NCBI GenBank assembly: GCA_036521915.1
Contig: DATDGU010000175.1
Coordinates: 1 to 63,532, forward strand
Direction: 5' to 3'
Length of the DNA: 63,532 bases
From: Acidimicrobiia bacterium
GTDB lineage: Bacteria > Actinomycetota > Acidimicrobiia > IMCC26256 > PALSA-555
Shown: positions 3,043 through 62,123 of the stretch, one piece after another
Layout of the letters: each line of letters starts with the position of its first letter
Position numbering within the stretch: the first letter of the stretch is position 1
The notes under the pieces: model-generated
Database searches by the model: none
What the model saw: only the letters and a program-made list of their open reading frames with translations
Told to the model about the DNA's origin: nothing
Position numbers and translations under genes: made by a program

Positions 3043-3123
3043 CAGCCCCAACCCTAGGTTGAGGACCGCCCGGCGAGCACCGGGGCCCACGACCCGGCCT
3101 CTGGGACGAACCGCAGCACGTCG

Positions 3124-10243: not shown

Positions 10244-10342
10244 CAGATCTCGCTCCTGTTGCTGAGGTGCAACGGGGAGGCCGGCGTCGGATTGCGCTCG
10301 GAGCGGCCAGGCGGTCGGAGCCTGGGAGCGGCGGGGGTCGGG

Positions 10343-13518: not shown

Positions 13519-14160
13519 TCACGACTCGGACAGCACCTTCTTCTTCTGGGCCTCGAACTCCTCTTGGGTCAGCGCACCGCGGTCTCGGAGGTCGGCGAGC
13601 TTGGCGATCTCGTCCGCCGGATCGGGCCTCGCCACGGGAGGACCAAAGCGCGTCGGCCCGGTAATCCCGGCGGACGCCATCGCGTTGGCGCTCATCTGAT
13701 TGGCGCGCGCCGTCATCTCCTGACGGAATTCGGCGGGATGGTCGATGGCCTCCTTCATCATGTCGTGGGCCGATTCGCCACCGAGCTGTTCCATCGCCGC
13801 CTGCGTGCCGTCCGAGATGTGGGACAACACCTCGGTCGCCTGACCTTCCGAGCTGTGGTCGACCACGACCTTCGAATGATCATCCGGGTCGTACAGCACC
13901 CCGACGGTGTCGCCAACCGCGGGACGGCTGCCCAGCTCGGGATAGGGCTCCGTGACCTCCGCCGCGAACGACGCCTCGTTGTCCGGTGTCACCCGGAGCG
14001 TCAGCTTCCAGTTGACGTGGGCGCTCGCCACCTGCTGCGCCGCGTCATTCCCGGTCGAGATGGCGAACTTGCCCTTCTTCGCCGCGGTCACCTGAGCCGG
14101 AGCCGTCTTGCCTCCACCCTCCCGGAGCTTCTGCTCGAGTCGTTCGGCGCTCCCAAACAC
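13519..14160 (-). CDS. SHOCT domain protein
   Basis: C-terminal SHOCT motif IAKLADLRDRGALTQEEFEAQKKKVL. The N-terminal domain is paralogous to the protein at 51337..52077 (VGVLYDPDDHSKVVVD vs ADVLYDPDNHSNTILD). Confidence 0.75.
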   Translation of the reverse strand: MFGSAERLEQKLREGGGKTAPAQVTAAKKGKFAISTGNDAAQQVASAHVNWKLTLRVTPDNEASFAAEVTEPYPELGSRPAVGDTVGVLYDPDDHSKVVVDHSSEGQATEVLSHISDGTQAAMEQLGGESAHDMMKEAIDHPAEFRQEMTARANQMSANAMASAGITGPTRFGPPVARPDPADEIAKLADLRDRGALTQEEFEAQKKKVLSES

Positions 14161-14416
14161 GGCCCTTCCCTTTGTGTCGGTGTTCCGGCTGGCTCGGCGT
14201 CGTACCGCCGTGATCGGTGGTCTCGTGCCGTCACGGCCATCCTCCCAAGGTCGTCATGCCGCCGGCTTGAGTAACGCCTACTTATGCCGCTGCGCGTCGG
14301 GACATGCGACGGCCACGGCCGGTGGTCCCGGGTCCGAGGCCGGGTCGGGCCGACCTCTCTCCCGGAGGGTGTCGGACGGGCACCCCACCGAGGCCTGCGT
14401 CAGTACGGTGCAGCGC

Positions 14417-17607: not shown

Positions 17608-18303
17608 GTGCCTGGTCCCGCACGCTTCGAGGTCGACGCCAGAACGCCTCTGCGCGTTGCCACCCGATCTGGCTCGGTGAAGATCACCGGTGAAGACCGC
17701 CAGGACGTACTCGTCGAGTCAGGTGCCCACGAGGTGACCAGAGGAGATGAGGGCATCGAAGTCACGGGCCGGTCAGCCGCCCTGGTGATTCATTGTCCAC
17801 TCCACACCGATGCGTTCGTCGGCTGCGCGTCGGGCGTGGTCTCGCTCCATGGCCCGCTGGGCGCAGTCCGGGTGACGACGAGGAGCGGGCGCATCAGCAT
17901 CGAGCAGGCCTACCGCGTCGACGCCAGAACGGCATCAGGTGACATCACCGTCGAAAGCTGCGACGGGGAGTGCCGATGCCAGACGAAGAGTGGGCGGCTC
18001 CGAGTGGGCCGAGCCGGTTCCGGAGAGCTCGTGGCCGCGTCCGGCCGCGTTGACGTCTACGCGATCGGGGCGGTGCGGGTTCGGATGGGCAGCGGGAAGG
18101 TGACGATCGGCCTCACCGAGGCCGCACCGGTCGACGTCGAGACTCACTCGGGGTCCGTGATCCTGAACGTACCGACGGGCCTGCGTCCGGCGCTCGAGCT
18201 AGACACGGCAAGTGGTCGGGTGCGCTGCGACTGCGAGCCCGGCTCCGACGGTGTGATTCGCGTCAGGACGCGCAGCGGATCGATCTCGGTGATCGAGCGT
18301 TGA
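17608..18303 (+). CDS. DUF4097-family beta-strand repeat protein
   Basis: 231 aa of repeated SG-[xx]-[VI]-x-[VI] strands (TRSGSVKIT, TRSGRISIE, TASGDITVE, TKSGRLRVG, THSGSVILN, TRSGSISVI). Confidence 0.75.
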   Translation: MPGPARFEVDARTPLRVATRSGSVKITGEDRQDVLVESGAHEVTRGDEGIEVTGRSAALVIHCPLHTDAFVGCASGVVSLHGPLGAVRVTTRSGRISIEQAYRVDARTASGDITVESCDGECRCQTKSGRLRVGRAGSGELVAASGRVDVYAIGAVRVRMGSGKVTIGLTEAAPVDVETHSGSVILNVPTGLRPALELDTASGRVRCDCEPGSDGVIRVRTRSGSISVIER

Positions 18304-18833
18304 GGGCGCCGAGCGTCACGGAGCCTGGCGCGATCGTCTTCACCGACATTGTCGGCTTTACTGAGTTCACGGCGGTACAGGGCGACAGCGAGGCCATCGC
18401 GCTCCTCGATCGCCAAGAGCAGATGGTCCGTGCTGCCCTCCCGTCAGGCGCCCGGATCGTGAAGGAGCTGGGGGACGGTCTGCTGCTCTGGCTTCCCGAG
18501 GCATGCCCGGCACTCGTCGCAGGACTCGACTTGCTGGATCGATTCGGCGAGGCGGCGCAGCCTTCCGCGTTGTGGGTACGCATCGGCATGCACTGGGGCT
18601 GTCCGACGCCCCGGGGCGATGACCTCGTCGGCCACGACGTGAATCTCGCGGCGAGGATCGTCGACGTCGCCGGCCCTGGCGAACTCCTGCTGTCGGCCAA
18701 CGTGCGGACGGCCGTCGACGCCGCCGGGTCGGAAGGCTTCCGTTTCGACGAGCTCGGTCCGGTGGTCATGCGCGGCATTCCCGAGCCCGTGCGGCTGTAC
18801 CGCGCCTCCCGATCGCCGTCTGCCGCGGCGTGA
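18300..18833 (+). CDS. minimal class III adenylate/guanylate cyclase catalytic domain protein
   Basis: 177 aa. Metal Asp motifs FTDIVGFT and KELGDGLL. Transition-state motif GHDVNLAARIV is intact. TTG start overlaps the upstream stop (18300-18303). Confidence 0.85.
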   Translation: MRAPSVTEPGAIVFTDIVGFTEFTAVQGDSEAIALLDRQEQMVRAALPSGARIVKELGDGLLLWLPEACPALVAGLDLLDRFGEAAQPSALWVRIGMHWGCPTPRGDDLVGHDVNLAARIVDVAGPGELLLSANVRTAVDAAGSEGFRFDELGPVVMRGIPEPVRLYRASRSPSAAA

Positions 18834-36999: not shown

Positions 37000-38391
37000 T
37001 CACGGCGCGGCGTAGGTCCAGTCGGGCTGCTTCCGGTCCTGCCGCGGGTCGTAGGTGGCCACGCCGTCGCGCACGTCGACGATCTTCGGGGTGGGCAGCG
37101 GCTCGACGAGCGCATCCGTCTCGAGCTCCGAGACGAAGTCCTCGGGGAACGTGCGCAGCAGGCTGCCGATCATCCGCTGCTCCTCCTCGCCGAGATAGCA
37201 GCGATTCTGATCGGTGATGCCCTGGAGTCGCTCGCCGATGATCCGGACGTCGAGGAGCTCGCCGCGTCCTTCGGCGAGGCGGTCGAGTCGCCGCGTGATC
37301 TCGCCGCACCCGTACTTGCAGGCCCGGCACTGGCCGCACGACTCGACGTACAGGAACCGTGACACCATGCGAGCGACGGCGAGCATGCTGCGGGTGTCGT
37401 CGTAGACGATGAAGCCGCACGAGCCCAGTCCGCTGCCCGCCGCCGCCATCCCTTCGTAGCTGAGCGGCGCGTCGAGGTCCGCCGCGGCGAGCACGGGGTT
37501 CGCGACGCCCGAGAGCACGGCCTTGACGCTGCGACCCTCACGCACCGGACCGCCGATCTCCTCCAGGACGTCGCGCAGCCGGGTGCCCGGCTCGATCTCC
37601 CCGTACCCGCAGCGTGTGACGTCACCCACGACGGAGCACAGGAGTGGGCCCGGCGTCTGCTCCGTCCCGATGCTGCGGTACCAGTCGGCTCCCCGCGTCA
37701 GGATGAGCGGGACGTTGGCCAGCGTCTCGACGTTCGACACCAGCGTGGGGTTCGACCCCTCGACCGCGCCCGTGTCGGCGGGCGGCCCGGTGACCGCCGA
37801 CCAGCCTTCCTGGGGTGTCGTGGCGAACAGCCCGTGCTGATACGGCGCCAGCCAACGGGGCATCGGGTCGTTGCCCTCGATCACCTCGAGCAGGGCCTTC
37901 TCCTCGCCGAAGAGGTACTCCTCGGGCCCCGTGACGAGGGTGACCGGCACATCGCCGAAGTACCCGCCGGCGGACACCTCCTCCATCGCGTGTCGCAGCG
38001 CCTCAATCTCGGGCTCGAAGGACGCCTTCACGGCGACGAACGCCGCCCGCGCGTCGACGACGAGCGCGGCGATGGCGAGGCCCTCCAGCACCTGGAACGG
38101 GTTCGTGCGAAGCAGTGGCCGGTCCTTGAAGGTCCCGGGCTCGCCCTCGGCACCGTTGGCGACCACATACCGGTCACCGAACGCCGGGCCGCCCCCGAGC
38201 ACCGAACGCCACTTGCGCGCCGCTGGGAACCCGGCGCCGCCACGGCCTCGAAGGCCGGCTCGGTCCAGCTCGTCGAGGACACCGTCAGCGCCCCGCGCCC
38301 TCGCGGCGTCGATGGCCTGGCCGCCGCCCGCCGCGGCGTACGTCGCGAGCCCGTCATAGGGGACCCGCGGGAGCAGAAGGTGTGGCTCCAC
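37000..38391 (-). CDS. NuoF-like NADH-binding FMN/4Fe-4S flavoprotein (orphan)
   Basis: GLRGRGGAGFPAARKW (FMN/NADH site), NGAEGEPGTFKDR, ESCGQCRACKYG (N3 cluster). Start probably GTG 38391 (VEPHLLLP). The rest of ORF 37000..38940 is read-through. Confidence 0.8.
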   Translation of the reverse strand: MEPHLLLPRVPYDGLATYAAAGGGQAIDAARARGADGVLDELDRAGLRGRGGAGFPAARKWRSVLGGGPAFGDRYVVANGAEGEPGTFKDRPLLRTNPFQVLEGLAIAALVVDARAAFVAVKASFEPEIEALRHAMEEVSAGGYFGDVPVTLVTGPEEYLFGEEKALLEVIEGNDPMPRWLAPYQHGLFATTPQEGWSAVTGPPADTGAVEGSNPTLVSNVETLANVPLILTRGADWYRSIGTEQTPGPLLCSVVGDVTRCGYGEIEPGTRLRDVLEEIGGPVREGRSVKAVLSGVANPVLAAADLDAPLSYEGMAAAGSGLGSCGFIVYDDTRSMLAVARMVSRFLYVESCGQCRACKYGCGEITRRLDRLAEGRGELLDVRIIGERLQGITDQNRCYLGEEEQRMIGSLLRTFPEDFVSELETDALVEPLPTPKIVDVRDGVATYDPRQDRKQPDWTYAAP

Positions 38392-43277: not shown

Positions 43278-43324
43278 GGTTCGGCCTCTGATGGCTGTGC
43301 CAACGCTTGGCGTGGGGGTGGTTC

Positions 43325-46300
43325 GTGACTGACACGCAGACGGCGACGGTCCTGTTCACGGACATGGTGGGTTCGACGGAACTGGCATCGCGTTTGGAAC
43401 CCGCGACCGGCGACCGGGTCCGGCAGACGCACTTCGGGGTTCTGCGCCGGGCGTTAGCGGCCACTGGGGGCTCGGAGGTCAAGGGAACGGGCGATGGAGT
43501 GATGGCCGTGTTTTCCTCGATGGCGTCAGCGTTGACATGCGCCGTTGCGATGCAGCAAGGCGTGGACGAAGAGAACCGTCGTTCCGGGGTTCCGGTGGGG
43601 TTGCGCGTCGGCATGAGTGTCGGGGAGGTCACCCCCGAAGACGCGGATTTCTACGGAGACCCGGTCATTGAGGCGGCCCGACTCTGCGCGCTCGCAGAAG
43701 GTGGGCAAATCCTCGTGACGGAGGCGGTGCGGGTCGTCGCTGGTCGCCGCGCCGCGCACCTCTTTATTGACTTGGGCGAGCGCGAGCTAAAGGGACTGCC
43801 GACACCGATCCCGGTCCTTGAGCTGGGTTGGGAGCCCCTCGCCGTGGAAGCAACGGTTCCGGGGGTCGTCCCCTTACCGGCTCGGCTGGCCCATCGACCA
43901 GCGGTAGGGGTGATTGGACGCGACCAGCAGCTCGGCTTGCTCGCGGACGCCGCGAAGCGGGTGGCGGCGGGGACCGGTCGTGAAGTGGTTCTCATTGGTG
44001 GTGAGCCGGGCGAGGGCAAGACAACTCTGGTAGCCGAGGCGGCCCGCACCATGCGAACCAACGGGATGACAGTGCTGCTAGGTCGCAGCGACGAGGACCT
44101 GGGCTCCCCGTACAAGCCCTTCGCAGAAGCGCTTCGCCATTACGTCGTTCATGCCGACGAGGATGTGCTCGCTTCCCATGTACGCGCACATGGCGGTGAA
44201 CTCGCCCTCCTCGTGCCCGCGCTGCGAGAGCGTGTCAGTGAGCTCCCAATGACGGTGAGCAGTGATGCCGAGACCGAGCGCTACCTGCTCTATAGCGCGG
44301 TTGCCGGGCTGCTGGACGGAGCGAGCGTTGACTCACCGATCGTTCTGGTGCTCGATGACCTGCATTGGGCAGACAAGCCCAGCCTGCAGCTGCTCCGATA
44401 CCTCGTTGCCCATGTCGCATCCAAGCGCCTGCTGATCTTGGGCACCTACCGCGACGCCGAACTCTCCACCTCGCATCCCCTGACGGAGACGCTCGCCGCA
44501 TTGCGCCGCGAGCCCGCCGTGACGCGGATCGACCTGAGGGGTTTGGACGACAACGGTGTCGTCCTCTTCATGGAGTCCGCGGCCGGACACGAGCTGGACG
44601 ACGACGCCCTGAAGCTTGCTCATGCGTTGTATCGGGAGACAGACGGCAACCCGTTCTTCGTAGCCGAAGTGCTGCGTCACCTGTCCGAGACGGGCGCCAT
44701 CGTGCGGGACGGCAGCGGACGCTGGGTCAACACCCGAGGGGATGAGGCGCCCGCGCTTCCCGAGAGCGTGCGCGAGGTGATCGGCGCGAGGGTGTCTCGG
44801 ATCGGCGGCGCCGCGACTGAGGTGCTATCGACTGCGAGCGTCATTGGACGGGACTTCGAGCTGGACCTGCTCGCCGAAGCGAGCGGACAGGACGAGGACC
44901 CTCTGCTCGACCTGCTCGACCAAGCCAAGGGCGCCGCGCTCGTCCGGGAACTCCCCGGCGGTCCTGGCCGCTACACCTTCGCTCACGCCCTCATCCAGCA
45001 CACGCTCTACGAGGATTTGGGAATCACTCGCCGCGCCCGCGCCCACCTCCAAGTCGGCGAAGCCTTGGAGCGGCTCCACGGCGACCAGCCGGCACGAATC
45101 AGCGAGCTCGCTCGACACTTCCTTCTTGCCAGCCGTCCGAGCGAGACCGAGAAGGCCAGCGTCTATGCCCGCCGAGCCGGCGACGCCGCGCTGGCGGCGC
45201 TCGCCCCCGACGACGCCCTCCACTACTACACCCAGGCCCTCGACCTCCTCGCCCAATGGACGACCGCCGATCCGGCCACGGTCATCGATCTGCAGATCGG
45301 ACTTGGCACGGCCCAGCGGCAAGCGGGCAAACCCGAGTTCCGAGCCACGCTCCTCGACGCGGCTCGCAACGCACGGCAGCACCACAAGACCGAGCGCCTG
45401 GTGGCTGCAGCGCTTGCCAACCACCGAGGATTCGTCGCCGCGCTCGGCGCCATCGATACCGAACGTGTCGAGATCCTCGAGGCCGCCCTCGAGGCTCTCG
45501 CAACCGCCGATAGCCCGCAGCGCGCCCGTGTCCTCTCAACGCTGTGTTCCGAACTCACCTTTGGCCCACTAGAGCGACGCCGTGCCCTGGCAACCGAGGC
45601 GAAGGCCATGGCTCGGCGTCTCGGCGACCCGGCGACGCTCGTCGCGGTCACCGACGACTGCGCGGTTGCCCTACGAATCCCCGCGCTTCTTGCCGAGTCG
45701 CTCGCCGATGAGAAGGACGCACTCGCACTGACCGAGCTGTTGGGGGATCCCGTCAGTCGGCTCTGGTGTGCGAGCAATCTCAAGATCGAAGCGGCGCGAG
45801 CCGGTGCCTTCGAGCTGTCCGACCAGAGCCTCGCCACCGTGACAGCAATCAGCGAAGAGCTCCAACAACCGCTCCTGCTCTGGATCGCGAGCTTCAACCA
45901 GGCATCCCAGGCGCTCCGACACGGCGACACGAGCCGAGCAGAAGAGCTCGCCACAAGAGCGCTCGAGGTCGCTGCCGACAGCGGCCAACCCGACGCTCTT
46001 GAGTTCTACGGCGTCCAACTCATGGAGATCCGATACCAGCAAGGCAGGATGGGAGAACTCGCATCGCCGGTCGCCGAAGTCGCCGAACAGAACCCCGGAT
46101 TGCCTGTCTATCGGTCGGTCCTGTGTTTGGCGGAGCTCGAGGCGGGCCACACGAATCGCGCCAGCAAGTTACTTGAGCAAGCAGCGAACGACCAGTACCC
46201 GCTCCCGATGGACACGTCGTGGCTTGCCGGCATGATCTGCTGGGCGCGCGTCGCCATTGAACTCGGTGCACCGGGACCGTCCGCGCAGTTGCTCGAGTTG

Positions 46301-46630
46301 CTCGTGCCGTACCACGGTCAGCTACAGGAGAGCGGTGCTGTTGTTCATGAGCCGGTTGCCGCGATTGTCGCCGGACTTGCTGGCGTCGTCGGTGACGTGT
46401 CGACAGCCGAAGGGTTCTTCCACGAGGCGAACGAGCTCAACGAGAAAGGAGCGATGAACCACGCCGACGCCCAAACCAAACTGTGGTGGGGGCGCACGCT
46501 TCTCGCGCGATCGGGGCCGGGGGATCGCGAGCAGGCCCGAAGCCTGCTGGAGCGCGCTCGGCGGACTGCGAAGGACCGCGGCTACACGGCAATCGAACGG
46601 AGGGCCGTCGCTGCGCTCGAGAACTGCTAG
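43325..46630 (+). CDS. class III cyclase domain - AAA/STAND NTPase - TPR-like repeat protein
   Basis: N-terminal cyclase (VLFTDMVGST, VKGTGDGVMAVF, YGDPVIEAARL), Walker A GGEPGEGKTTLV, Walker B IVLVLDDLHWAD, then about 600 aa of helical/TPR-like repeats. No C-terminal LuxR HTH. Start GTG 43325 (or 43307). Confidence 0.9.
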   Translation: MTDTQTATVLFTDMVGSTELASRLEPATGDRVRQTHFGVLRRALAATGGSEVKGTGDGVMAVFSSMASALTCAVAMQQGVDEENRRSGVPVGLRVGMSVGEVTPEDADFYGDPVIEAARLCALAEGGQILVTEAVRVVAGRRAAHLFIDLGERELKGLPTPIPVLELGWEPLAVEATVPGVVPLPARLAHRPAVGVIGRDQQLGLLADAAKRVAAGTGREVVLIGGEPGEGKTTLVAEAARTMRTNGMTVLLGRSDEDLGSPYKPFAEALRHYVVHADEDVLASHVRAHGGELALLVPALRERVSELPMTVSSDAETERYLLYSAVAGLLDGASVDSPIVLVLDDLHWADKPSLQLLRYLVAHVASKRLLILGTYRDAELSTSHPLTETLAALRREPAVTRIDLRGLDDNGVVLFMESAAGHELDDDALKLAHALYRETDGNPFFVAEVLRHLSETGAIVRDGSGRWVNTRGDEAPALPESVREVIGARVSRIGGAATEVLSTASVIGRDFELDLLAEASGQDEDPLLDLLDQAKGAALVRELPGGPGRYTFAHALIQHTLYEDLGITRRARAHLQVGEALERLHGDQPARISELARHFLLASRPSETEKASVYARRAGDAALAALAPDDALHYYTQALDLLAQWTTADPATVIDLQIGLGTAQRQAGKPEFRATLLDAARNARQHHKTERLVAAALANHRGFVAALGAIDTERVEILEAALEALATADSPQRARVLSTLCSELTFGPLERRRALATEAKAMARRLGDPATLVAVTDDCAVALRIPALLAESLADEKDALALTELLGDPVSRLWCASNLKIEAARAGAFELSDQSLATVTAISEELQQPLLLWIASFNQASQALRHGDTSRAEELATRALEVAADSGQPDALEFYGVQLMEIRYQQGRMGELASPVAEVAEQNPGLPVYRSVLCLAELEAGHTNRASKLLEQAANDQYPLPMDTSWLAGMICWARVAIELGAPGPSAQLLELLVPYHGQLQESGAVVHEPVAAIVAGLAGVVGDVSTAEGFFHEANELNEKGAMNHADAQTKLWWGRTLLARSGPGDREQARSLLERARRTAKDRGYTAIERRAVAALENC

Positions 46631-46730: not shown

Positions 46731-46827
46731 GGATCGGCCGCGGCAGCGAGCGCTCAGATCGGACGTGACGGCAGCAGCAGCGTCGACTCCATCGGGTCGA
46801 TGATTGCCCCAGATGAGGCCAGGACGA

Positions 46828-47289
46828 TCAGTCGTACACCACGGCCGTGTTCGCCGCGACGTCGTGCAAGGCGCGGTGCTCTCGTCCGATGACGATCCCG
46901 ACGAGCCCGAGACCGAGGATGAACGAGAAGGGGAACACCAGCGTCCGCACGGCGGCCTTCCCTGCATGGAGCCTCGAGCCGTCGCGACGGACGACCTTGA
47001 CACCGAGCAGTCGCATGCCGGGCGTCTGGCCGACGGATGCCCAGCAGACGAAGTAGTAGAGGAAGAGCCACACGACCTCTGCTGGCACTGCGATGGCCGT
47101 CGACACCTGGATGTGCAGGGCCTTGCCGGTGACGAAATCCACGATGGCGATAACGGTCACGGTGATGACGGCGAGCAGGAGGTGCGAGACAAAGAGGTCA
47201 ACGATCCATGCCACGAGCCGGCTCAGCGGGCCGGCGTAGCACCCGCGCCGCGCCGTTACGGGGTCGTCAGGCTGTTTGACTTGCGTCAT
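46828..47289 (-). CDS. RDD family membrane protein
   Basis: Start MTQVKQPDD at 47289. LSRLVAWIVDLFV and GQTPGMRLLGVKVVRRDG are RDD hallmarks. Confidence 0.85.
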   Translation of the reverse strand: MTQVKQPDDPVTARRGCYAGPLSRLVAWIVDLFVSHLLLAVITVTVIAIVDFVTGKALHIQVSTAIAVPAEVVWLFLYYFVCWASVGQTPGMRLLGVKVVRRDGSRLHAGKAAVRTLVFPFSFILGLGLVGIVIGREHRALHDVAANTAVVYD

Positions 47290-47599
47290 CGATCTTGGGT
47301 CCTGGAGACGGACGCAGTGGCCGCCAATCGGGCGCGCGCCGCAGCACCCGGTCCACGATCCCGGTCGTCCAACCATCCAGGCGGGCGGCCTCATCTTGGG
47401 CGGCGTCAAGGGTGCGCCTCGATACTCGGCGGACCGATCGCTCGACCACGGCCTCGAGGTCGATGCGCTCGAGGATCGCGTTCATGTCGATCTGTTCGAG
47501 AACAGCGTTCAGATCGATGTGGCTGATCACCTGCTGGACGACCACGTCGACGGGCATCAGGAGCCTGTCGAGGGGCTTTGGATGTTGATCGTTTGCCAT
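47267..47599 (-). CDS. hypothetical protein with 3 x 9-aa tandem repeat
   Basis: Start MANDQHPKP at 47599. IDLNAVLEQ-IDMNAILER-IDLEAVVER is encoded by 3 x 27 nt at 47438-47518. 23-nt overlap with the RDD gene start. Confidence 0.55.
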   Translation of the reverse strand: MANDQHPKPLDRLLMPVDVVVQQVISHIDLNAVLEQIDMNAILERIDLEAVVERSVRRVSRRTLDAAQDEAARLDGWTTGIVDRVLRRAPDWRPLRPSPGPKIDDASQTA

Positions 47600-51336: not shown

Positions 51337-52077
51337 ATGGCCTTGTTCCAATCAGTCGAAGAGAAGCTCTTGGCCAACGGCCGCCAGGCGCAGGCCGACA
51401 TCCTGGCGTCGGAGCCCACCCACCATGTGGTCGAGCGGGGTGCGATCGAGCAGCTCATAAAGCGTCGTTGGCAGCTCTCGCTGCGGGTGCACCCCGCCGG
51501 GGCCGATGACTTCGAGGTCGAGTTCAAACAGGATCTCGGCAGCTGGCGGATGCCGTGGCGCGGCGAGACCGCTGACGTGCTTTACGACCCCGACAACCAC
51601 TCGAACACGATCCTTGACCCCCGGGTGGAGGGCCCAGTTCCCCGGCCGGAGTGGGACTGGAATCCATCAACGGGCACTTCTCCCCCGAAGGCTCGACGCG
51701 CGGTCCAGGAGGCACAAAGCGCGCCGTCGGAGCATCGAGCCGATATGCAGCTGCTGGCCGGCTACTACCAAGACGGTGCGCTCTACGACTTCGAGTACCA
51801 AGAGCTCAGGCGACGGATCCTCGGTCTGCCGCTGGTCGATCCCCGACCGGCGATTGCCCAAGCGTTGGGTGTCGAGGGCGAGCAGGCGTACGTTCGCTCA
51901 ACGGCAGACGGACATGAAGTGCCGCTCACGAGCTCGGAGCCGACGCCTAGCCGACCCGATCTGAGCGGCCGCATCACCCAGCTCGAAGACTTGGCCAATC
52001 GCCACGACCAGGGCGAACTCACCGACGCCGAGTTCGCTGCCGCCAAGGACAAGCTGCTGAGCGGCAACGCCACCTGA
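51337..52077 (+). CDS. SHOCT domain protein (paralogue of 13519..14160)
   Basis: 246 aa. C-terminal ITQLEDLANRHDQGELTDAEFAAAKDKLL. N-domain similar to the protein at 13519..14160. Confidence 0.75.
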   Translation: MALFQSVEEKLLANGRQAQADILASEPTHHVVERGAIEQLIKRRWQLSLRVHPAGADDFEVEFKQDLGSWRMPWRGETADVLYDPDNHSNTILDPRVEGPVPRPEWDWNPSTGTSPPKARRAVQEAQSAPSEHRADMQLLAGYYQDGALYDFEYQELRRRILGLPLVDPRPAIAQALGVEGEQAYVRSTADGHEVPLTSSEPTPSRPDLSGRITQLEDLANRHDQGELTDAEFAAAKDKLLSGNAT

Positions 52078-52085
52078 TCGTGGCT

Positions 52086-52112
52086 GACTCGCGGTCTGGA
52101 GAACCGCGAGTC
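52086..52112. repeat. hairpin repeat copy
   Basis: GACTCGCGGTC-TGGAG-AACCGCGAGTC. 9 nt after the SHOCT gene stop. Confidence 0.9.
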
Positions 52113-52396
52113 ATGGACGACCGTGTTCGGCGCGAGTTGGTCGTCGATGCGTCATCCGCCGGCCTATGCCGGACATGACGGGTCCACCTGCCGCGGCCGA
52201 CTACTACTGACTGGGGTCGGTCTCAGAACAACTTGAACCGCCCGGGGTTCCGGGATCGCGGGTCGACCGCCGGCTGGCCCGGTGAGCGATGTCGGCCTGC
52301 TGGGAAAAGAGCAGGAACACGCCTGCCGGCGCTGCCTGTGACTAGGGTGTCGGCGTTCCTTCACCCAGGGCGGGTGTGGCAGAGGCGGAGGACCTG

Positions 52397-52576
52397 ATGC
52401 GACGAGCACCGCTGGTCGTGCTTGCGGCGATCGGGTTGGTCTTCGCGGCGAACGCGGGGGCGCCGGCCAGTGAGGGCAAGCAGGTGCACGCGACGGGTTC
52501 GCAGCAGTTCGCGACTCCCGGGACGTTCCCGTTCACCGTCCCCGCCAACGTTACGTCGATCACGGTCGGAGAGTCG
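52397..52576 (+). pseudogene. 5-prime fragment of a secreted protein gene
   Basis: GGAGGA then ATG 52397. MRRAPLVVLAAIGLVFAANAGAPASEGKQVHATGSQQFATPGTFPFTVPANVTSITV is a signal peptide plus the start of a mature domain. After about 60 aa the frame turns Arg/Pro-rich and collides with the next CDS in another frame. Confidence 0.35.
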
Positions 52577-52680
52577 GTGTGGAGGCTCCGCCACGGACGA
52601 CCACCACTTGCGCCTGGGCGGCGGCCGCAACCACGATCCGGGCTATGCGATGGAATGATCTCGAACTGGATGGGAGAGAC

Positions 52681-53115
52681 ATGCCTCTACACGAACGTTC
52701 GCTCTACGTCACGTACACGACGTATCTGGAGCAAATACCGATGTTTCGCTCCTGCTCAGAGACCGAGCTCGATCACATTGCCGACCTCGCCTCCGCGACG
52801 ACAGTTGCTGAGGATCAGACGATCATCCAACAGGGCGATCTCGCTGATGAGTTCTTCGTGATTGTCAGCGGCTCAGCACACGTGATTCGCGACGGCAAGC
52901 CCATTGCCTCACTGGGACCCGGCGACTATTTCGGCGAGTTGGCCTTGTTCGACCGCGCGCTCCGGAACGCAACCGTGACGGCGACTTCACCAGTTGAGCT
53001 TGTGTCTTTCTCGCGTGGCGCGTTCGATGAACTTCTAAACGAGGTGGGTTCCCTGCGCAGCGCGCTGCTCACGGGAATGGCGAAGCGCCTTCATGAGCTC
53101 GAAGGTCGAGCCTGA
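52681..53115 (+). CDS. stand-alone cyclic nucleotide-binding domain protein
   Basis: ATG 52681 after GGGAGAG. 144 aa consisting only of a cNMP-binding beta-barrel with phosphate-binding cassette GDYFGELALFDRALRNATVTA. Lower GC3. Confidence 0.8.
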   Translation: MPLHERSLYVTYTTYLEQIPMFRSCSETELDHIADLASATTVAEDQTIIQQGDLADEFFVIVSGSAHVIRDGKPIASLGPGDYFGELALFDRALRNATVTATSPVELVSFSRGAFDELLNEVGSLRSALLTGMAKRLHELEGRA

Positions 53116-53393
53116 CCGCCGACAAGGGCAAGGCCCATTCTTCGGACAAGCCGCTGCTCTGCCGGCCGTGGTCCATGCTTGTCGATGGACGCTGATCGCT
53201 GAATAGCGCTACCGACGGTGTCTTCAGAGTCGCGAGCCGTCGGGTCCTGCGGAGAGGAACTGTGGGTGTAGGGGCGTGGGCATGGTTCGTCGGCGGCGCT
53301 GCGAAACTCTTTGGGCCGACCGGCCAACTCAGTCAGCCCGACGCCGCGCACTGGCCACTGGATTGGTGGATCTTGGCCGGTCCGCCGTACCGC

Positions 53394-53420
53394 GACTCGC
53401 GATCTCGAGGATCGCGAGTC
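53394..53420. repeat. hairpin repeat copy
   Basis: GACTCGCGATC-TCGAG-GATCGCGAGTC (perfect, extends to GCGACTC...GAGTCGC). Confidence 0.9.
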
Positions 53421-53723
53421 GCACGCCACGCGGCTTGAGCCAACCGCTGATGGCGGCAGGCCCTCTTCCGAGAGGCCCCGGGCGAGGATTTCGAGACCCC
53501 GAGCGCGCCCGGGGTACCCCATGATCGCCGCGCCGGCCCGTTGCCCAGACTGGGTGCGCACCCAGTCCTCCCCATTACGGGCTGGCCGGCGAAAGTTGAC
53601 CGGCGCTAATGCCGATCAACAACCTGAACTTAAGCACGGAGAACCCTGGCGTGTCTGTAGCGGCAGACACAGTTCCAGCGTGCTCGTCCATACACACCGG
53701 TGGGGGGCGCCGAAAGCGAGTCG

Positions 53724-54377
53724 CTATCGGGCGAGCGCGCGGAGCCGGTCGAGGTCGATGATGTCGATGTGCCCGCGGCCAAGTGCGATGGCACCCTGCT
53801 GGGCGCTCCGCTGAAGTACACGATTGACGGTTGGCCGTGTCGTGCCCGCCATGAGGGCTAGGTCCTCTTGCGTGAGATCGAGCCGCCCATTCTCATCCTG
53901 CCAACCCCACTCCTCTGCAATCTCGATCAACCTGCGGAGTAGCCGTGTCTCGACAGGGAAGTACAGCGCTTCCACGAGGACATCCGTCAATCGGCGGAGC
54001 CGGGCCGCGAGCGCCTCGACCAGGACGCTATTCACCGACGGGTAGGCCTGACGTAGTTCGTTGAACCGTTCACCAGTCAGGACGAGCGTCTCGGCTGGTT
54101 CGAGACAGACGACGGTCGCATTTCGTCGTGCCCCCGGCTCCAGCAGCGCCAGCTCCCCGAAGAAGTCGCCCGGGCCGACCACCATCAAGGTGACGATGTC
54201 TCCGCCTGACGTCGAGGACTGCACCGCCAGACGACCTCGTGCCACGAGATGGAACTCGTCGCCGGCGTCTTGCTGGTGAAACACGACCTCGCGGCGCTGG
54301 AACCGGCGCGTCCGCGTAGACGCGAGCAATTGCTCGCGGTCCCCTTCGCTCAAGCCCTCGAGCAGTGCCCACGTCAT
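53724..54377 (-). CDS. Crp/Fnr family transcriptional regulator
   Basis: Start MTWALLEGL at 54377. cNMP cassette GDFFGELALLEPGARRNATVV plus C-terminal HTH LTQEDLALMAGTTRPTVNRVLQ. Confidence 0.9.
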   Translation of the reverse strand: MTWALLEGLSEGDREQLLASTRTRRFQRREVVFHQQDAGDEFHLVARGRLAVQSSTSGGDIVTLMVVGPGDFFGELALLEPGARRNATVVCLEPAETLVLTGERFNELRQAYPSVNSVLVEALAARLRRLTDVLVEALYFPVETRLLRRLIEIAEEWGWQDENGRLDLTQEDLALMAGTTRPTVNRVLQRSAQQGAIALGRGHIDIIDLDRLRALAR

Positions 54378-54651
54378 CTGTTCAGCTCGACGCCTTTCTC
54401 TGCCGGCGCAGCAAGCCACTTCATTGGCACGCTACCCGACGACGTCCGGATCGAGTCCACGCATCGGTCGAAGCTCGAAGGACTACCGCTGCTTGGGGGT
54501 GGGTTGGCCGGCGCGTGGTGGCGATGCGGGTGCGAGATACCCAACCAAGATGACGGTCTCGCTGGGGCGATTGAGTCGCGTCGCCCTGTCGCGTGCAGCC
54601 TGAGCCGGATCACACCATCAAAGAGTCGCACCACTCCTTTAGGGTCGATCT

Positions 54652-55104
54652 GTGCCACCGCCAGCGGAGATCGCCTATAGAGAGGCAGTTCGTTCCCTCG
54701 AGGGGCAAGCTCGAGACCTCGAGAACATTCGCTCCCACGTGAGCATCACCCTCTCGGCTGGGGGTATCGCAGCCGCCTTCCTCGGGGCACTCACGAAGGC
54801 TCACGGACCAGCCTTCTGGGTGGCGGTCGCAGCGTTTGGTTTGGCGGCGGTCGCGACGATCATCGCGTACTGGCCCGTAACGTTTGCGTGGGACTTCGAC
54901 GGCTATGAGCTCGTCAGCAACTACGTCGATCGAAAGCCTCCTGCGACGGAAGACTTCGTCATGCGGGAGCTCGCGGTTCATGCAGCTGACGATTATGGCG
55001 AGAACCGCCAGCGACTCAACCGGCTCTTCACCCTCCAGTCCTTCGCCCTCCTCGCCTTCGGTGTAGAGGTCGGGGCTCTACTCATCAACCTCGCGGTAAG
55101 GTGA
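54652..55104 (+). CDS. hypothetical 3-TM protein (N-terminal helix, TM hairpin, soluble insert, C-terminal TM)
   Basis: 150 aa. The segment ...ARDLENIRSHVSITLSAGGIAAAFLGAL-TKAHGPA-FWVAVAAFGLAAVATIIAYW... ends with a C-terminal TM LFTLQSFALLAFGVEVGALLINL. GTG start, weak SD, lower GC3. Confidence 0.6.
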   Translation: MPPPAEIAYREAVRSLEGQARDLENIRSHVSITLSAGGIAAAFLGALTKAHGPAFWVAVAAFGLAAVATIIAYWPVTFAWDFDGYELVSNYVDRKPPATEDFVMRELAVHAADDYGENRQRLNRLFTLQSFALLAFGVEVGALLINLAVR

Positions 55105-55349
55105 TCGTCGTGGCGAACCGCCCGAAGATCGAAAAGAAGCCGGTCCCGAGCCGCCCGCCCACGAGCACGCCGAATCCCTCGCACTTCGAGAAGCGCGGTG
55201 GCAGGCCGTGGGGCGGCGGTCAGGAACCACGCCCGCGCCCCGGCAGGTAGCCCACACCGAGTCCGCTGCAGAGCGGCTCCCTTTGCCGAGCGGGGGCGTG
55301 CATCACCCATGACTGGTGCACGTCTCGACAGTTTGCGGCTGCAACGACC

Positions 55350-55376
55350 GACTCGCGATCTGGGAAACCGCGAGTC
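55350..55376. repeat. hairpin repeat copy
   Basis: GACTCGCGATC-TGGGA-AACCGCGAGTC. Confidence 0.9.
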
Positions 55377-55541
55377 GTCATCGGACGATCCAGGGGTTGG
55401 GCGTCTTGGCGGTGAGCGCTCTTCCTCATGCCCGGTCCTCCCGTTGCGCGTCTCGGGTCCTGTGGCGAACATGGGTGCGGAGCTGAGGAGTGCCCAGCCC
55501 ACGCTCGTGGGCAGACGCCCGAGACCCCCGGGGAGAGGTGC

Positions 55542-56423
55542 ATGGCAGCGGCGCAGGAGTCGATTGCGGTGCTGGGAATCGGCGCTATGGGCCATGGCTT
55601 GGCCAGCAGCGCCTTGCGCGCCGGCCTCCCTACGGTCGTCTGGAACCGCCGACCGGACGCGACTCGAGACCTCGCGGCGCGCGGTGCGGTCGTCGCTGAC
55701 AGCGCCGCCGACGCGGCACGGCGGGCCGGAATCGTCGTGACGATGGTGACCGACGCGGCCGCGGTCGCCTCGATCGCTCACGACCAAGGGATGCTCGCCG
55801 CGCTCGCACCGGGGGCGATCTGGGCGCAGATGAGCACGATCGGCGTGGCCGGCATCGAGCGGGTTGCGGCGATGGTCGAAGCCGAACGCCATGACGTCAT
55901 GCTCGTTGACGCGCCGGTGTCGGGAAGCAAGGACCCCGCCGAGCAAGGTGCGCTGACGATCTTTGCCTCGGGGCCGGACGACGCCCGCCCCCGCCTTCGT
56001 CCTCTCTTCGACGCGCTCGGGCAGCGCACGATCTGGGTCGGAGCGGTCGGGGCGGGGACCCGGCTCAAGCTCGTGAACAACACGTGGCTAGCGTTCGGCA
56101 ACGAGGCGATTGCCGCGTCAGTGGCGCTTGCTCATCGGCTTGGACTGACCACTGAAACCGTGGCCGAGGCGATCGCGGAGGGGCCGCTGATCTCGCCGTG
56201 GCAGGCGAGCAAGCTGCAACGGATCGCCAAGAACGACTTCTCGCCGCAGTTCGCGCTATCGCTCGCCCTGAAGGACATCCGACTCGCGCGTGAAGCGGCT
56301 GCCGAGCTGGCCGCCCTCGGCTGCCTGGCCGATGAATGGCAAGGGGCAGTCGATCAAGGACTTGGCGACTTGGACCTGACCGCCGTCACGCGCGCGTTGG
56401 AGGAGCAGAGAGGAACGTCATGA
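55542..56423 (+). CDS. NAD(P)-dependent oxidoreductase, 3-hydroxyisobutyrate/6-phosphogluconate dehydrogenase-like
   Basis: ATG 55542 after GGGAGAGG. IAVLGIGAMGHGLASSALRAG Rossmann fold and a DAPVSGS motif. Confidence 0.85.
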   Translation: MAAAQESIAVLGIGAMGHGLASSALRAGLPTVVWNRRPDATRDLAARGAVVADSAADAARRAGIVVTMVTDAAAVASIAHDQGMLAALAPGAIWAQMSTIGVAGIERVAAMVEAERHDVMLVDAPVSGSKDPAEQGALTIFASGPDDARPRLRPLFDALGQRTIWVGAVGAGTRLKLVNNTWLAFGNEAIAASVALAHRLGLTTETVAEAIAEGPLISPWQASKLQRIAKNDFSPQFALSLALKDIRLAREAAAELAALGCLADEWQGAVDQGLGDLDLTAVTRALEEQRGTS

Positions 56424-60986: not shown

Positions 60987-61034
60987 GCCACGGCCGTCCA
61001 TCCTGAGCTGGACTGATGCCGTATGCCGGCCCGC

Positions 61035-61061
61035 GACTCGCGGTCTGGGGGACCGCGAGTC
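61035..61061. repeat. hairpin repeat copy (perfect)
   Basis: GACTCGCGGTC-TGGGG-GACCGCGAGTC. 11-bp perfect stem. In the convergent NpdG/hydrolase junction. Confidence 0.95.
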
Positions 61062-61072
61062 ACACAGATGCG

Positions 61073-61840
61073 TCAGGCGTCGTCCTCAACCATGGTGAGG
61101 AGGGCGGCGGTCACCTCGTCGGGACGGGTGATCATGCAGTCGTGCCCGCCGGGGACCCGTGCTTGCTTGCAGCGAGGCAACCGGCTGGCGAAGCGGGCGG
61201 ACACCGGTCCCTCAATGGTTCGGTCGTCGGTCGCAGTGATGTAGGCGGTCGGGAGCCCGAGGGCGAGGAACTCGTGCAGGCGGCCAGGCTCGATCAGCGC
61301 AGCGGGCGGGTAGGGCAGGTATCGGTCCCGCACGAAGGCCCGATCCTCGACCGTGCCATCTTGGAGGGTGGCGTCCAGGATCAGGTCGGGATCGGTCAGT
61401 GCCCGGCCATCGGGTTCGAGGCTCACCGCTCGGGCGATCCAACGGCTCTGGGGCACTGCGTCGATCAGCGTCTCGCCATCGTCGGTCACAACGGCTGCCA
61501 GCCACACCACTCGACGCATCCGCTCCGGGAGCACCTCGGCGACTCGGGGGACAACGACGCCTCCCATCGAGTGGCCGACGAGCACGACATCGCCCAGCCC
61601 CTCAAAGGTGATGACCTGCACGACGTCCGTCACGAACGTCTCGAACCCCACCACCGCATCGCCGAGGTGACTGCGCTCCCCGAACCCAGTCAGCGTGGGG
61701 GTATAGACCGCGTAGCCGGCGGCTTGCAGCCGGCGGGCCACCCGCACCCAGCACCAGCCGCCGTGACCTCCTCCATGGACAAGCACGAAGGCCGGCTTGG
61801 CCGGCCCGTCGTCGTTAAGAGTCGGTCGGACGGGCAGCAA
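61073..61840 (-). CDS. alpha/beta hydrolase
   Basis: 255 aa. FVLVHGGGHGGWCW and nucleophile elbow VLVGHSMGG. Confidence 0.85.
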   Translation of the reverse strand: MLPVRPTLNDDGPAKPAFVLVHGGGHGGWCWVRVARRLQAAGYAVYTPTLTGFGERSHLGDAVVGFETFVTDVVQVITFEGLGDVVLVGHSMGGVVVPRVAEVLPERMRRVVWLAAVVTDDGETLIDAVPQSRWIARAVSLEPDGRALTDPDLILDATLQDGTVEDRAFVRDRYLPYPPAALIEPGRLHEFLALGLPTAYITATDDRTIEGPVSARFASRLPRCKQARVPGGHDCMITRPDEVTAALLTMVEDDA

Positions 61841-61926
61841 CGACGCAACACCTCTTCGACTCGGCTCGAAAGCACCCCTCGTAGAGTACGGCCACCGTGC
61901 TCAGCGCGCCGACGTCGGCTGACCGA

Positions 61927-62123
61927 TCAGTCGTATACGACCGTCGTGTCCGCTGCGACGTCGTGCAAGGCGCGGTGCTCGCGCCCGCTGCCCCCCCGTG
62001 TCTTGGTTTTTGGCGCGTTCCGCGCTTCCGGTGCCGCTTCGGCCCTTCCGTGCTCCCTGGTGTCACCACAACATCGCACACGAGCCATTTGACGCGCTGG
62101 TTGGCGACCCAGAAGCCGATCAA
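61927..62123 (-). pseudogene. decayed RDD-family gene remnant
   Basis: The last 20 codons (GREHRALHDVAADTTVVYD*) match the C-terminus of the RDD gene at 46828 (GREHRALHDVAANTAVVYD*), with a 26-nt identical core. Upstream, another frame reads GFWVANQRVKWLVCDVVVTPGS (compare WASVGQTPGMRLLGVKVVRRDGS). The TM region is missing. Confidence 0.45.

Follow-up and report, generated by a model that had tools for sequence, protein, structure and literature searches.

A repeat-bounded, strain-variable island of a soil actinobacterium in which cyclic-nucleotide receptors and a membrane-protein cassette are probably neighbours by accident

In cyclic-nucleotide immunity of the Pycsar type, the cyclase and its effector are encoded by genomic neighbours, and the receptor is a single polypeptide in which a cyclic-nucleotide-binding (CNB) domain is fused to transmembrane (TM) helices or to a TIR domain (PMC11224242). 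SLATT proteins, in turn, are predicted to serve nucleotide-linked defence systems as membrane effectors (bioRxiv 10.64898/2026.04.29.721553). The original prediction for the locus described here was that a stand-alone cyclic-nucleotide (cNMP) receptor, a Crp/Fnr regulator, or both control a separate protein with three TM segments (3-TM). Such a split of receptor and effector would have meant a new architecture for cyclic-nucleotide immunity, for which the comparative evidence provides no support. We conclude that segment 52107–55401 is a strain-variable island in a soil actinobacterium, probably one of the Acidimicrobiia, that its genes have three separate histories, and that their three-way adjacency is probably accidental.

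The three predicted reading frames are all present in the list of open reading frames (ORFs) of the window (the whole 63,532-nucleotide stretch of DNA that was analysed), but the repeats that were thought to enclose three intact genes enclose four, the overlooked one being a 49-aa ORF. The features discussed below are:

43307–46630, + strand: class III cyclase fused to a STAND/AAA_16 ATPase, 1107 aa (Pfam Guanylate_cyc and AAA_16; context only)
52086–52112, no strand: palindromic hairpin repeat GACTCGCG-N11-CGCGAGTC, left island edge, 9 nt after the stop codon of the SHOCT gene
52113–52680, + strand: non-coding debris including a putative 5′ remnant of a secreted-protein gene (ORF list and sequence)
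52681–53115, + strand: stand-alone cNMP-binding protein (CNB), 144 aa (PF00027; beta-barrel plus C-terminal helix, no output domain)
53394–53420, no strand: internal hairpin copy, in the 608 nt that separate the convergent genes for CNB and Crp
53724–54377, − strand: Crp/Fnr regulator, 217 aa (cNMP_binding and HTH_Crp_2), resident gene of the site
54378–54651, no strand: divergent spacer between the Crp and 3-TM genes, with no convincing operator
54652–55104, + strand: 3-TM membrane protein of an uncharacterised family, 150 aa (hydropathy, AF2 model, relatives)
55101–55250, + strand: 49-aa basic Pro/Gly-rich ORF, conserved partner of the 3-TM gene, present in nine locus types
55350–55376, no strand: hairpin copy, right island edge; near-identity to the sister strain L024 (98.2%) resumes at 55402

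The likeness to Pycsar, which protects against phage and signals through cCMP or cUMP, lies in the presence of a class III-type cyclase and of CNB-domain receptors. The cyclase–STAND protein expected upstream is indeed encoded there, and the CNB domains match PycTIR in PADLOC (E = 1e-16 and 9e-14), although these matches cover model positions ~31–140, i.e. the CNB part only. The differences are more numerous. Unlike a Pycsar receptor, the CNB protein lacks an effector domain; the 3-TM protein, for its part, contains no CNB domain and gives no PADLOC match to PycTM, so that no fused effector is found. Nor does a PycC-type cyclase stand next to an effector: the nearest cyclase is 6 kb from the island, with three genes and several hairpin copies in between, its PADLOC matches to PycC are weak and partial (best E = 3e-8), and nothing found here links it to the island. 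HMM searches (Pfam, PADLOC), which had been proposed as a check, recovered the CNB and Crp domains but returned no specific match to a Pycsar effector.

Homologues of the 3-TM protein occur at eight independent loci, at 53–84% identity; adjacent CNB, Crp and cyclase genes were not found at any of the eight, and within 10 kb neither Crp nor a stand-alone CNB gene is present. The combination of CNB, Crp and 3-TM genes was found only in near-identical copies (loci L005–L007), a comparison that draws on few independent contexts (eight for the 3-TM gene, three for CNB and two to three for Crp). By the co-location test that the original prediction had itself proposed, control of the 3-TM protein by the soluble receptor or Crp is largely refuted, since the triad is not co-located in other genomes. 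With it falls the Pycsar-like interpretation of a receptor controlling a membrane effector, while the repeat-flanked, acquired island stands and the belonging together of the two receptors is weakly favoured. Because the three genes have separate histories, their proximity would be an accident of island assembly and not a cNMP-to-membrane effector system.

The sister strain L024 gives the clearest view of the island. Its DNA is 96.6–98.2% identical to the flanks of the window, up to 52106 and again from 55402, and the content between these points differs. The flanking proteins are 97.6–98.4% identical; Crp, which in L024 occupies the same place beside the SHOCT gene, is 89% identical and CNB 87%, the two being in a different order. 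In the L024 island, the gene just upstream of Crp encodes an FHA-domain class III adenylate cyclase; the island further carries a Ser/Thr kinase, a stand-alone receptor and two membrane ORFs, and has no 3-TM gene or cassette. Both CNB and Crp are thus present in both variants, and the cyclase–Crp–kinase set is present in only one of them. A further natural variant is represented by a contig of the soil metagenome X3, which joins 52094 to 53403 (i.e. the hairpin at 52086 to that at 53394) and skips the receptor segment. In run X3, contig depth is also zero over 54680–55599 despite the presence of Crp, CNB and the flanks, zero depth being no proof of absence. Together, the sister strain and the soil contig bear out the prediction of an acquired module with flanking debris, in the form of a repeat-bounded variable segment.

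Repeat copies do lie at 52086 and 55350, as predicted; a third, at 53394 within the supposed module, had been missed. The window contains 13 copies of the hairpin against 0.46 expected, and copies are found in related genomes as well (four in L001, seven in L017, one in L018 and two in L024). The edges of the island lie at hairpin copies or no more than 26 nt from them. We regard the hairpin as a lineage-wide, genome-wide, REP-like repeat: it shares with REP-type repeats a short, GC-rich palindrome, many intergenic copies, often just past stop codons, and an occurrence common to related genomes, and it differs from them in that its copies coincide with breakpoints of the island polymorphism. 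An Rfam scan over the entire window returned no family that reached its gathering score. The X3 contig skips a 1308-nt segment that takes in the debris at 52113–52680, and neither L024 nor L017 contains anything corresponding to this debris. The ORF starting at 52376 encodes a signal peptide followed by ...TPGTFPFTVPANVTSITV, after which the frame is lost; it may be the remnant of a gene for a secreted protein. Lower GC3 within the island was likewise correctly predicted, albeit modest in extent (CNB 0.68, 3-TM 0.72 and Crp 0.77 versus 0.79–0.85 in flanking genes). The locus remains of interest as a case of natural swapping of hairpin-repeat-bounded gene segments at one site among closely related soil strains.

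The 3-TM protein has, as predicted, three hydrophobic segments by hydropathy, the first of them marginal, and is laid out as an N-terminal helix, TM1, TM2, an acidic helical region and TM3. Its AF2 model is all-helical (mean pLDDT 85.7). No match was obtained in Pfam, NCBIfam or PADLOC; nevertheless, the protein has 39 close relatives and belongs to a family of 1163 representative clusters at E ≤ 1e-3, ten distant members of which, retrieved by cluster look-up, are all metagenomic ‘hypothetical protein’ entries. In the sequence GTGA, the GTG start of the 49-aa ORF and the TGA at which the 3-TM gene ends overlap. A small ORF occupies the same position in nine of nine locus types, with the 3-TM stop and small-ORF start overlapping or separated by a few nucleotides; no other partner of the 3-TM gene is conserved. 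Its core, RP(S/P)T(S/T)TPNPS(N/H)(F/L)x(K/R)xG(G/A)xP, is nearly invariant, its differences by codon position (0.40/0.31/0.53) follow a coding-like substitution pattern, and its GC3 is 0.88. Homology to the DNA of L001 runs exactly over 54639–55253 and covers both ORFs, and one relative (P0034) is a frameshift fusion of the two. A search of the small peptide and its neighbours with PADLOC gave nothing specific.

These observations suggest that the 3-TM gene and the translationally coupled 49-aa basic peptide form a self-contained two-gene cassette. The cassette is found at unrelated sites, and at four of the five loci with pre-called genes it lies ~2–10 kb from integrase, resolvase, excisionase-like or PIN genes. 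Our best guess, drawn from the overlapping genes and the SLATT resemblance, a faint one, described below, is that the 3-TM product may be a membrane-acting protein that is held or tuned by its small partner. The significance of the pair of 3-TM protein and peptide lies in the micro-gene, hitherto unannotated, being the true partner of a widespread, uncharacterised family of membrane proteins; routine gene callers and domain libraries miss the pair.

With SLATT-domain effectors (SMODS/SLOG-associated 2TM), the 3-TM protein shares small size and an N-terminal helix followed by a TM hairpin, and SLATT_3, DUF4231 and SLATT_1 recur as weak Pfam matches of its family. The protein itself reaches 12.5 bits on SLATT_3 (E = 0.18), below the cut-off of 26.3. 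Among its relatives, SLATT_3 is matched by 6 of 26 close and 7 of 125 distant ones (best E = 8e-4), DUF4231 by four and SLATT_1 by one, all below the Pfam cut-offs. Unlike SLATT effectors, the family has no member that reaches such a cut-off, and its third TM helix is extra. The partners differ too: the SLATT protein of DRT10/UG17 pairs with a reverse transcriptase, and SLATT partners elsewhere are reverse transcriptase, SMODS, SLOG or TIR enzymes, whereas the partner of the 3-TM protein is a disordered peptide of 43–53 aa. No SMODS, SLOG, TIR or reverse-transcriptase gene stands beside the 3-TM gene in any of the eight loci, although one TIR_2 gene lies ~6.5 kb away in L008.

Among the alternative explanations, the one that fares best, and which is compatible with the accidental adjacency favoured here, is that the 3-TM gene and its partner constitute a toxin–antitoxin-like or abortive-infection cassette; we consider this improbable, at about one chance in a few. 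It would account for two short genes whose stop and start codons overlap and that always move together, a feature they share with type II-like toxin–antitoxin pairs, whose small overlapping genes are inherited together. The variable positions of the cassette, at several loci ~2–10 kb from integrase, resolvase, HTH_17 or PIN genes or a tRNA, fit this explanation, as do the sub-threshold SLATT-like matches. So do the opposite charges of the products: residues 75–124 of the 3-TM protein, predicted to be cytoplasmic, are acidic (net −4), and the peptide is basic (net +8 here; pI 8.3–11.9 across loci). A distant member of the 3-TM family is likewise followed by a basic Pro/Gly-rich ORF. Against it, neither PADLOC nor a PHROGs scan of 26 close relatives (nothing below E = 0.05) returned a match, and SMODS, SLOG or reverse-transcriptase partners are lacking. 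Phage, plasmid and viral-contig collections held no relatives, as judged by tblastn with the 3-TM protein and two distant relatives and by a viral-contig scan. Structural searches gave nothing either: Foldseek, run with the AF2 model on PDB and BFVD, matched nothing with E < 0.1, its top viral candidate being a siphovirus protein of 1071 aa, itself uncharacterised (E = 0.15, TM 0.61), and the family profile found nothing below E = 0.3 among PDB sequences. Many of the neighbouring genes, moreover, are plain metabolic ones. A bolder proposal, which we hold to be somewhat less probable still, is that the 3-TM protein and its 43–53-aa peptide are an undescribed, self-contained membrane module that relocates between soil Acidimicrobiia/Actinomycetota, perhaps a SLATT-like effector checked by a micro-protein and hence a new type of toxin–antitoxin or defence system. 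In this proposal the module would be the most strongly conserved branch of a family with >1000 sequence clusters for which Pfam has no model.

Actinobacteria have a large cAMP-signalling repertoire, of which both cNMP receptors are ordinary members. The 144-aa protein consists, as predicted, of a cNMP-binding domain alone, PF00027 cNMP_binding being its sole Pfam domain (E = 3e-21). It belongs to a family of stand-alone CNB proteins of ~140–150 aa that is large in Actinomycetota metagenomes: >338 homologues were found, nearly all of 140–144 aa. A solved example of this kind is PDB 2pqq (149 aa; E = 6e-13), deposited as a ‘putative transcriptional regulator’, which is also a single CNB domain with no output domain. 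What sets the window's gene apart from this family is its setting in a 1.3-kb segment between two hairpin copies; some natural variants carry this segment and others lack it. The homologue lengths, together with a metatranscriptome contig that starts at 52656, identify ATG 52681 as the real start; the contig is 100% identical to the window and spans 52656–52867. A longer version starting at GTG 52579 is ruled out by the same homologue lengths and by the end of the RNA contig. Orthologues at 85, 65 and 54% identity each lie in an unrelated genomic context, and DNA homology of the region to L017 and L024 is limited to 52672–53121. Most likely the protein is a soluble binder of cAMP, serving as either a buffer or an adaptor.

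The prediction of a Crp/Fnr regulator holds, with PF00027 (E = 1e-20) and PF13545 HTH_Crp_2 (E = 3e-16) both above their cut-offs. Regulators of the Crp/Fnr family are dimers that bind cAMP through a Gly-Glu...Arg cassette and then DNA, and the resident gene of this site would be expected to act in the same way. The reading frame extends over 53724–54419 (− strand); because nearly all orthologues have 217 aa, ATG 54377 is the likely start, and the same lengths rule out a 231-aa product. Among solved structures, the closest full-length matches of the regulator (E = 2e-26 to 6e-23) are the CRP-family entries 4cyd/3r6s and 3h3u/3i54, which we take to be Corynebacterium GlxR and the M. tuberculosis CRP Rv3676. 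With such actinobacterial regulators it shares architecture (CNB and HTH_Crp_2), length and the conserved phosphate-binding cassette. It differs in being a distant paralogue, not the housekeeping orthologue, and in lying in a strain-variable island; the cyclase partner seen in the sister strain is absent here. Since that FHA-domain class III cyclase is missing, the signal for Crp would have to come from other cyclases, of which the window alone has two. A metagenome scan with Crp yielded three loci, one of them useful, and an RNA contig from a ~96% identical relative spans 53986–54169 of the gene.

The cassettes of the two receptors, GDYFGELALFDRALRNATV and GDFFGELALLEPGARRNATV, are alike, as predicted, yet the domains are 38% identical overall, which rules them out as recent duplicates. 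In both, the pattern FGELAL...RNATV, with Gly-Glu and Arg conserved, aligns with the PKG/PKA cassettes. A functional tie among the cNMP genes is possible, given that the receptors co-occur in both island variants and that a further cNMP-binding gene lies near a CNB homologue, at a distance of 2 kb in L018; the two may belong to one local cAMP locus. This leads to the second alternative, that CNB and Crp are a functional pair to which the 3-TM cassette is irrelevant, the HTH-less CNB buffering local cAMP or entering into mixed dimers with Crp by way of the C-terminal helix common to both, and so tuning the output of a local cyclase–Crp circuit. Both genes are kept in two differently arranged variants at one site while the other cargo differs, which argues for such a pair, although co-occurrence in two variants of one species may reflect shared ancestry. 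The alignment of the proteins runs beyond the barrel through the helix that follows it, the FHA-cyclase lies directly upstream of Crp in the sister variant, and transcript fragments match CNB exactly and a ~96% relative of Crp. On the other hand, no Crp gene lies within 10 kb of the CNB orthologues at 85 and 54% identity, the relative of Crp in L027 has no adjacent stand-alone CNB gene, the X3 variant lacks the CNB segment beside Crp, and at 38% identity the domains are not recent duplicates. We deem a functional pair unlikely, and hold to the accidental three-way adjacency set out above.

One TGTGA-N6-TCACA match with two mismatches lies in the spacer between the Crp and 3-TM genes, at 54599–54614, though the operator of a paralogue may differ from this consensus; across the whole window, Crp-box-like sites are at chance level (16 versus 15.1 expected). 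An inverted-repeat search of 54378–54651 found weak pairs only, and a promoter and terminator consensus scan of 52000–55500 gave nothing useful, with no promoter-like site in the spacer. Homology to L024 and L020 ends at 54421. A lineage-specific regulatory link from Crp to the 3-TM gene, divergent and 274 nt apart, is conceivable from the gene arrangement.

The last alternative, in which the cyclase makes a cNMP that the stand-alone receptor, Crp or both sense and the 3-TM protein is the membrane effector, can point to the Gly-Glu...Arg cassette retained in both CNB domains, to the divergent 3-TM and Crp genes, to the faint SLATT-like signal and to the variability of the island, as is common at defence loci, but we judge it very improbable in view of a triad confined to near-identical copies, a 3-TM gene that is never beside CNB, Crp or cyclase genes in eight other loci, a sister island with receptors and no 3-TM gene, PADLOC matches limited to the CNB part of PycTIR and absent for PycTM, a cyclase 6 kb away behind three unrelated genes with weak, partial PycC matches, no operator signal above chance, and the pairing, in known Pycsar, of the cyclase with a neighbouring fused CNB-effector (PMC11224242). 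The second cyclase homologue of the window lies at 18150–18800.

The 150-aa protein with three predicted transmembrane segments (3-TM), which the original prediction grouped with a stand-alone cNMP-binding (CNB) receptor and a Crp/Fnr regulator in a split Pycsar-like module, is encoded by an independent two-gene cassette that is uncharacterised and of modest interest. The genes at the locus are as follows:

43307-46630, upstream of the island: cyclase-STAND protein (Guanylate_cyc + AAA_16)
52376-52650, + strand: putative secreted-protein gene remnant (signal peptide, then ...QQFATPGTFPFTVPANVTSITV, after which the frame is lost)
52681-53115, + strand: stand-alone receptor, 144 aa (single cNMP_binding domain, PF00027, E 3e-21)
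53724-54419, - strand: Crp/Fnr regulator (PF00027 + HTH_Crp_2)
54652-55104, + strand: 3-TM protein, 150 aa (hydropathy; AlphaFold2 model)
55101-55250, + strand: small ORF, 49 codons, unannotated and overlooked in the original prediction, basic and Pro/Gly-rich, with a GTG start overlapping the TGA stop of the 3-TM gene (GTGA)

The three genes of the proposed module are thus present, as judged by ORFs and Pfam domains, and so is the cyclase-STAND protein upstream; the receptor and Crp have the similar phosphate-binding cassettes that had been quoted, and their CNB domains as a whole are only 38% identical. The Crp start is more likely ATG 54377 (217 aa), because nearly all orthologues have 217 aa, and the receptor start at 52681 is supported by homologues of 140-144 aa and by a metatranscriptome contig beginning at 52656. 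Whole-window GC is 68%, and the sources of relatives of the window genes are soil metagenomes and MAGs that bear the label Actinomycetes or Acidimicrobiia.

A word-index search found 39 proteins of the 3-TM family among 5.8 billion, and we compared homologue loci at 84% (L001), 70% (L008), 61% (P0022 contig) and 53-60% identity (L003/L014, L004/L015, L011, L012, L013, L016). In none of those available as DNA did phmmer of all ORFs detect a Crp or stand-alone CNB gene, and neither is listed in the gene table of the P0022 contig, the sole source there. The only cNMP-binding gene across the loci is in L001, at a distance of 6-8 kb, and encodes a patatin fusion; the Crp/3-TM arrangement is kept only in 96-99% identical copies of the window (L005-L007). 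Lack of co-location, the observation that the original prediction itself had named as counting against it, is therefore what was found, and the grouping of the 3-TM gene with the receptor and Crp is not supported; on present evidence, the gene lies outside any cyclase-Crp-receptor circuit.

What does accompany the 3-TM gene is the small ORF (43-53 aa), directly 3' of it in every homologue locus examined. Its core is nearly invariant (RP(S/P)T(S/T)TPNPS(N/H)(F/L)x(K/R)xG(G/A)xP), its GC3 is 0.88, and differences fall mostly on third codon positions (0.40/0.31/0.53). At the DNA level, the window and L001 match only over 54639-55253, a block that begins 13 nt ahead of the 3-TM start and ends 3 nt past the peptide stop, and in one database entry, P0034, a frameshift fuses both ORFs into a single protein. 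The constant presence of the small ORF, the limits of the L001 block and the P0034 fusion together define the conserved unit as the pair of 3-TM gene and peptide gene. At some loci, genes of the integrase, resolvase, HTH_17, transposase and PIN kinds lie within about 2-10 kb; other loci have plain metabolic genes as neighbours.

Hydropathy gives three hydrophobic segments in the 3-TM protein, the first marginal, and the AlphaFold2 model built with 26 relatives (mean pLDDT 85.7) has helices at 4-47, 53-73, 84-92 and 100-149. The protein has no match in Pfam, NCBIfam or PADLOC, none in PDB or BFVD by structure or sequence at E<0.1, and searches of phage, plasmid and viral-contig collections turned up no relatives. 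When 1.84 billion representatives were searched with a profile, 1163 clusters matched at E<=1e-3, 365 of them at 1e-10; almost all have about 150-170 aa and align end to end. Of ten members looked up, each is either a metagenomic ‘hypothetical protein’ or unnamed. SLATT_3 is the sole recurrent Pfam signal, in 6 of 26 close and 7 of 125 distant members (best E 8e-4, sub-cut-off; 12.5 bits vs a cut-off of 26.3 for the window protein), and DUF4231 and SLATT_1 are also matched in the family below curated cut-offs. The TM2-TM3 region is acidic (net -4) and the peptide basic (net +8 in the window; pI 8.3-11.9 across loci), with 43-61% Pro/Gly/Ser/Thr. Our best guess is that the 3-TM protein may be a membrane protein of SLATT-like type, with a micro-protein partner that holds it. 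Downstream of a distant member (L023 700-1047) come a 52-aa ORF, very basic and rich in Pro/Lys/Gly, and then a tRNA-like gene, judged from translation, which if a tRNA would be a typical integration site. The sole fusion seen in the wider family, P0187 (480 aa, metagenomic), has a 300-aa N-terminal region without Pfam match ahead of the 3-TM module.

Pycsar systems pair a cyclase with a genomically linked receptor whose CNB domain is fused to TM segments or TIR (PMC11224242), and the window locus has neither feature. PADLOC matched the receptor and Crp only to the CNB portion of the PycTIR and PycC models; the match of cyclase-STAND to PycC is weak and partial (best E 3e-8), of the same order as that of an FHA-cyclase from a sister strain (L024). 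Sites resembling TGTGA-N6-TCACA occur at chance frequency, one of them, with two mismatches, in the Crp/3-TM divergent spacer; neither a promoter-like site nor a convincing operator was found there.

The Crp and CNB proteins are further members of kinds already known. The solved structures closest to Crp (E 2e-26) are regulators of the GlxR / M. tuberculosis CRP type, and the closest stand-alone CNB structure to the receptor is 2pqq. The receptor family is large (>338 matches at E<1e-10, almost every one of 140-144 aa). Orthologues in L017 (85% identity), L018 (65%) and L019 (54%) have unrelated neighbourhoods, with no Crp or 3-TM gene nearby; window homology to L017 is limited to the receptor gene (52672-53115), and in L018 another cNMP-binding protein, of 331 aa and distinct from the receptor, is encoded 2 kb from the orthologue. 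Soil metatranscriptome contigs contain a receptor-gene fragment at 100% identity and a fragment of a Crp relative at ~96%; the 3-TM gene was not found in any indexed RNA run.

The window genome is dense in cNMP signalling genes, with a second class III cyclase homologue at 18150-18800 (+) (tblastn with the L024 FHA-cyclase, E 8e-13). Another cNMP-rich neighbourhood, partially syntenic with the window, is L027, on the same 367-kb contig as L001 and about 100 kb from its 3-TM gene; here the gene for a 340-aa protein resembling Crp (CNB domain only; 75% identity across 65% of the query) has nearby a SHOCT gene, a luciferase-like fragment and two fusions, abhydrolase-cyclase and PPDK_N-CNB.

Most informative is the sister-strain contig L024 (10.4 kb), which carries the Crp orthologue nearest to the window gene (P0307, 88-89% protein identity); its 1-3127 corresponds to window 58527-55402 at 98.2% and its 9600-10419 to window 52106-51288 at 96.6%. 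The SHOCT and NAD_binding_2 genes are shared, but the island that they enclose in L024 (3128-9599) is a different one, from which the 3-TM gene is absent; in window orientation, its genes are:

Crp, - strand, first in order
FHA-Guanylate_cyc gene (class III cyclase), same strand as Crp and just upstream of it
membrane Ser/Thr kinase, 641 aa
two membrane ORFs, 49 aa and 279 aa
144-aa receptor, 87% protein identity to the window receptor

Flank proteins are 97.6-98.4% identical, whereas Crp and receptor are 87-89% identical; the island has therefore been exchanged and not just shuffled. The L024 island looks like a fuller cAMP/phospho-signalling locus, and the two window receptors may be a remnant or variant form of a local cAMP locus made up of cyclase, Crp and receptor, a link that is modestly supported within this species, not beyond. 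L024 9480-9600, the place corresponding to the window's secreted-protein remnant, holds a glycine-rich coding remnant. Window 38122-38256 (135 nt) is 80% identical to L024 3263-3396, just downstream of the L024 CNB gene, and may be another dispersed repeat or a rearrangement trace; a distant paralogue (28% identity) of the island-flanking SHOCT-domain protein is encoded at 13528-14163 (-).

The copies of the hairpin GACTCGCG-N11-CGCGAGTC at 52086 and 55350 are real, but do not form a mere flanking pair: the window has 13 copies vs 0.46 expected (9770, 18865, 23992, 38470, 42274, 47728, 52086, 53394, 55350, 57476, 59420, 59453 and 61035), one of them, at 53394, inside the supposed module. Denser at 42-61 kb, often shortly past stop codons, and found also in related genomes (L001, L017, L018, L024), the element behaves like a REP-type intergenic hairpin. 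L024 homology stops at 52106, inside the hairpin at 52086-52112, and restarts at 55402, 26 nt past that at 55350-55376; the L024 breakpoint upstream of Crp has a hairpin at a distance of 45 nt. Soil metagenome runs X1 and X2 have the window-type island; a contig of run X3 passes directly from 52094 to 53403, from one hairpin into the other, skipping 1308 nt (debris and the receptor gene). X3 contig depth is zero over 54680-55599 (3-TM and peptide), with Crp, receptor and flanks present, which is only suggestive, as judged on contigs, of absence of the cassette. GC3 is somewhat lower in the island genes (0.68 for the receptor, 0.77 for Crp and 0.72 for 3-TM, vs 0.79-0.85 in flanking genes). The L024 exchange and the X3 joint bear out an acquired or variable island; it is real, variable and hairpin-bounded, and that part of the original reasoning therefore stands. 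A 67-nt direct repeat (46825-46891 and 61924-61990, 87% identical) is common to two ORFs without Pfam match, 46804-47526 and 61016-62092, possibly paralogues.
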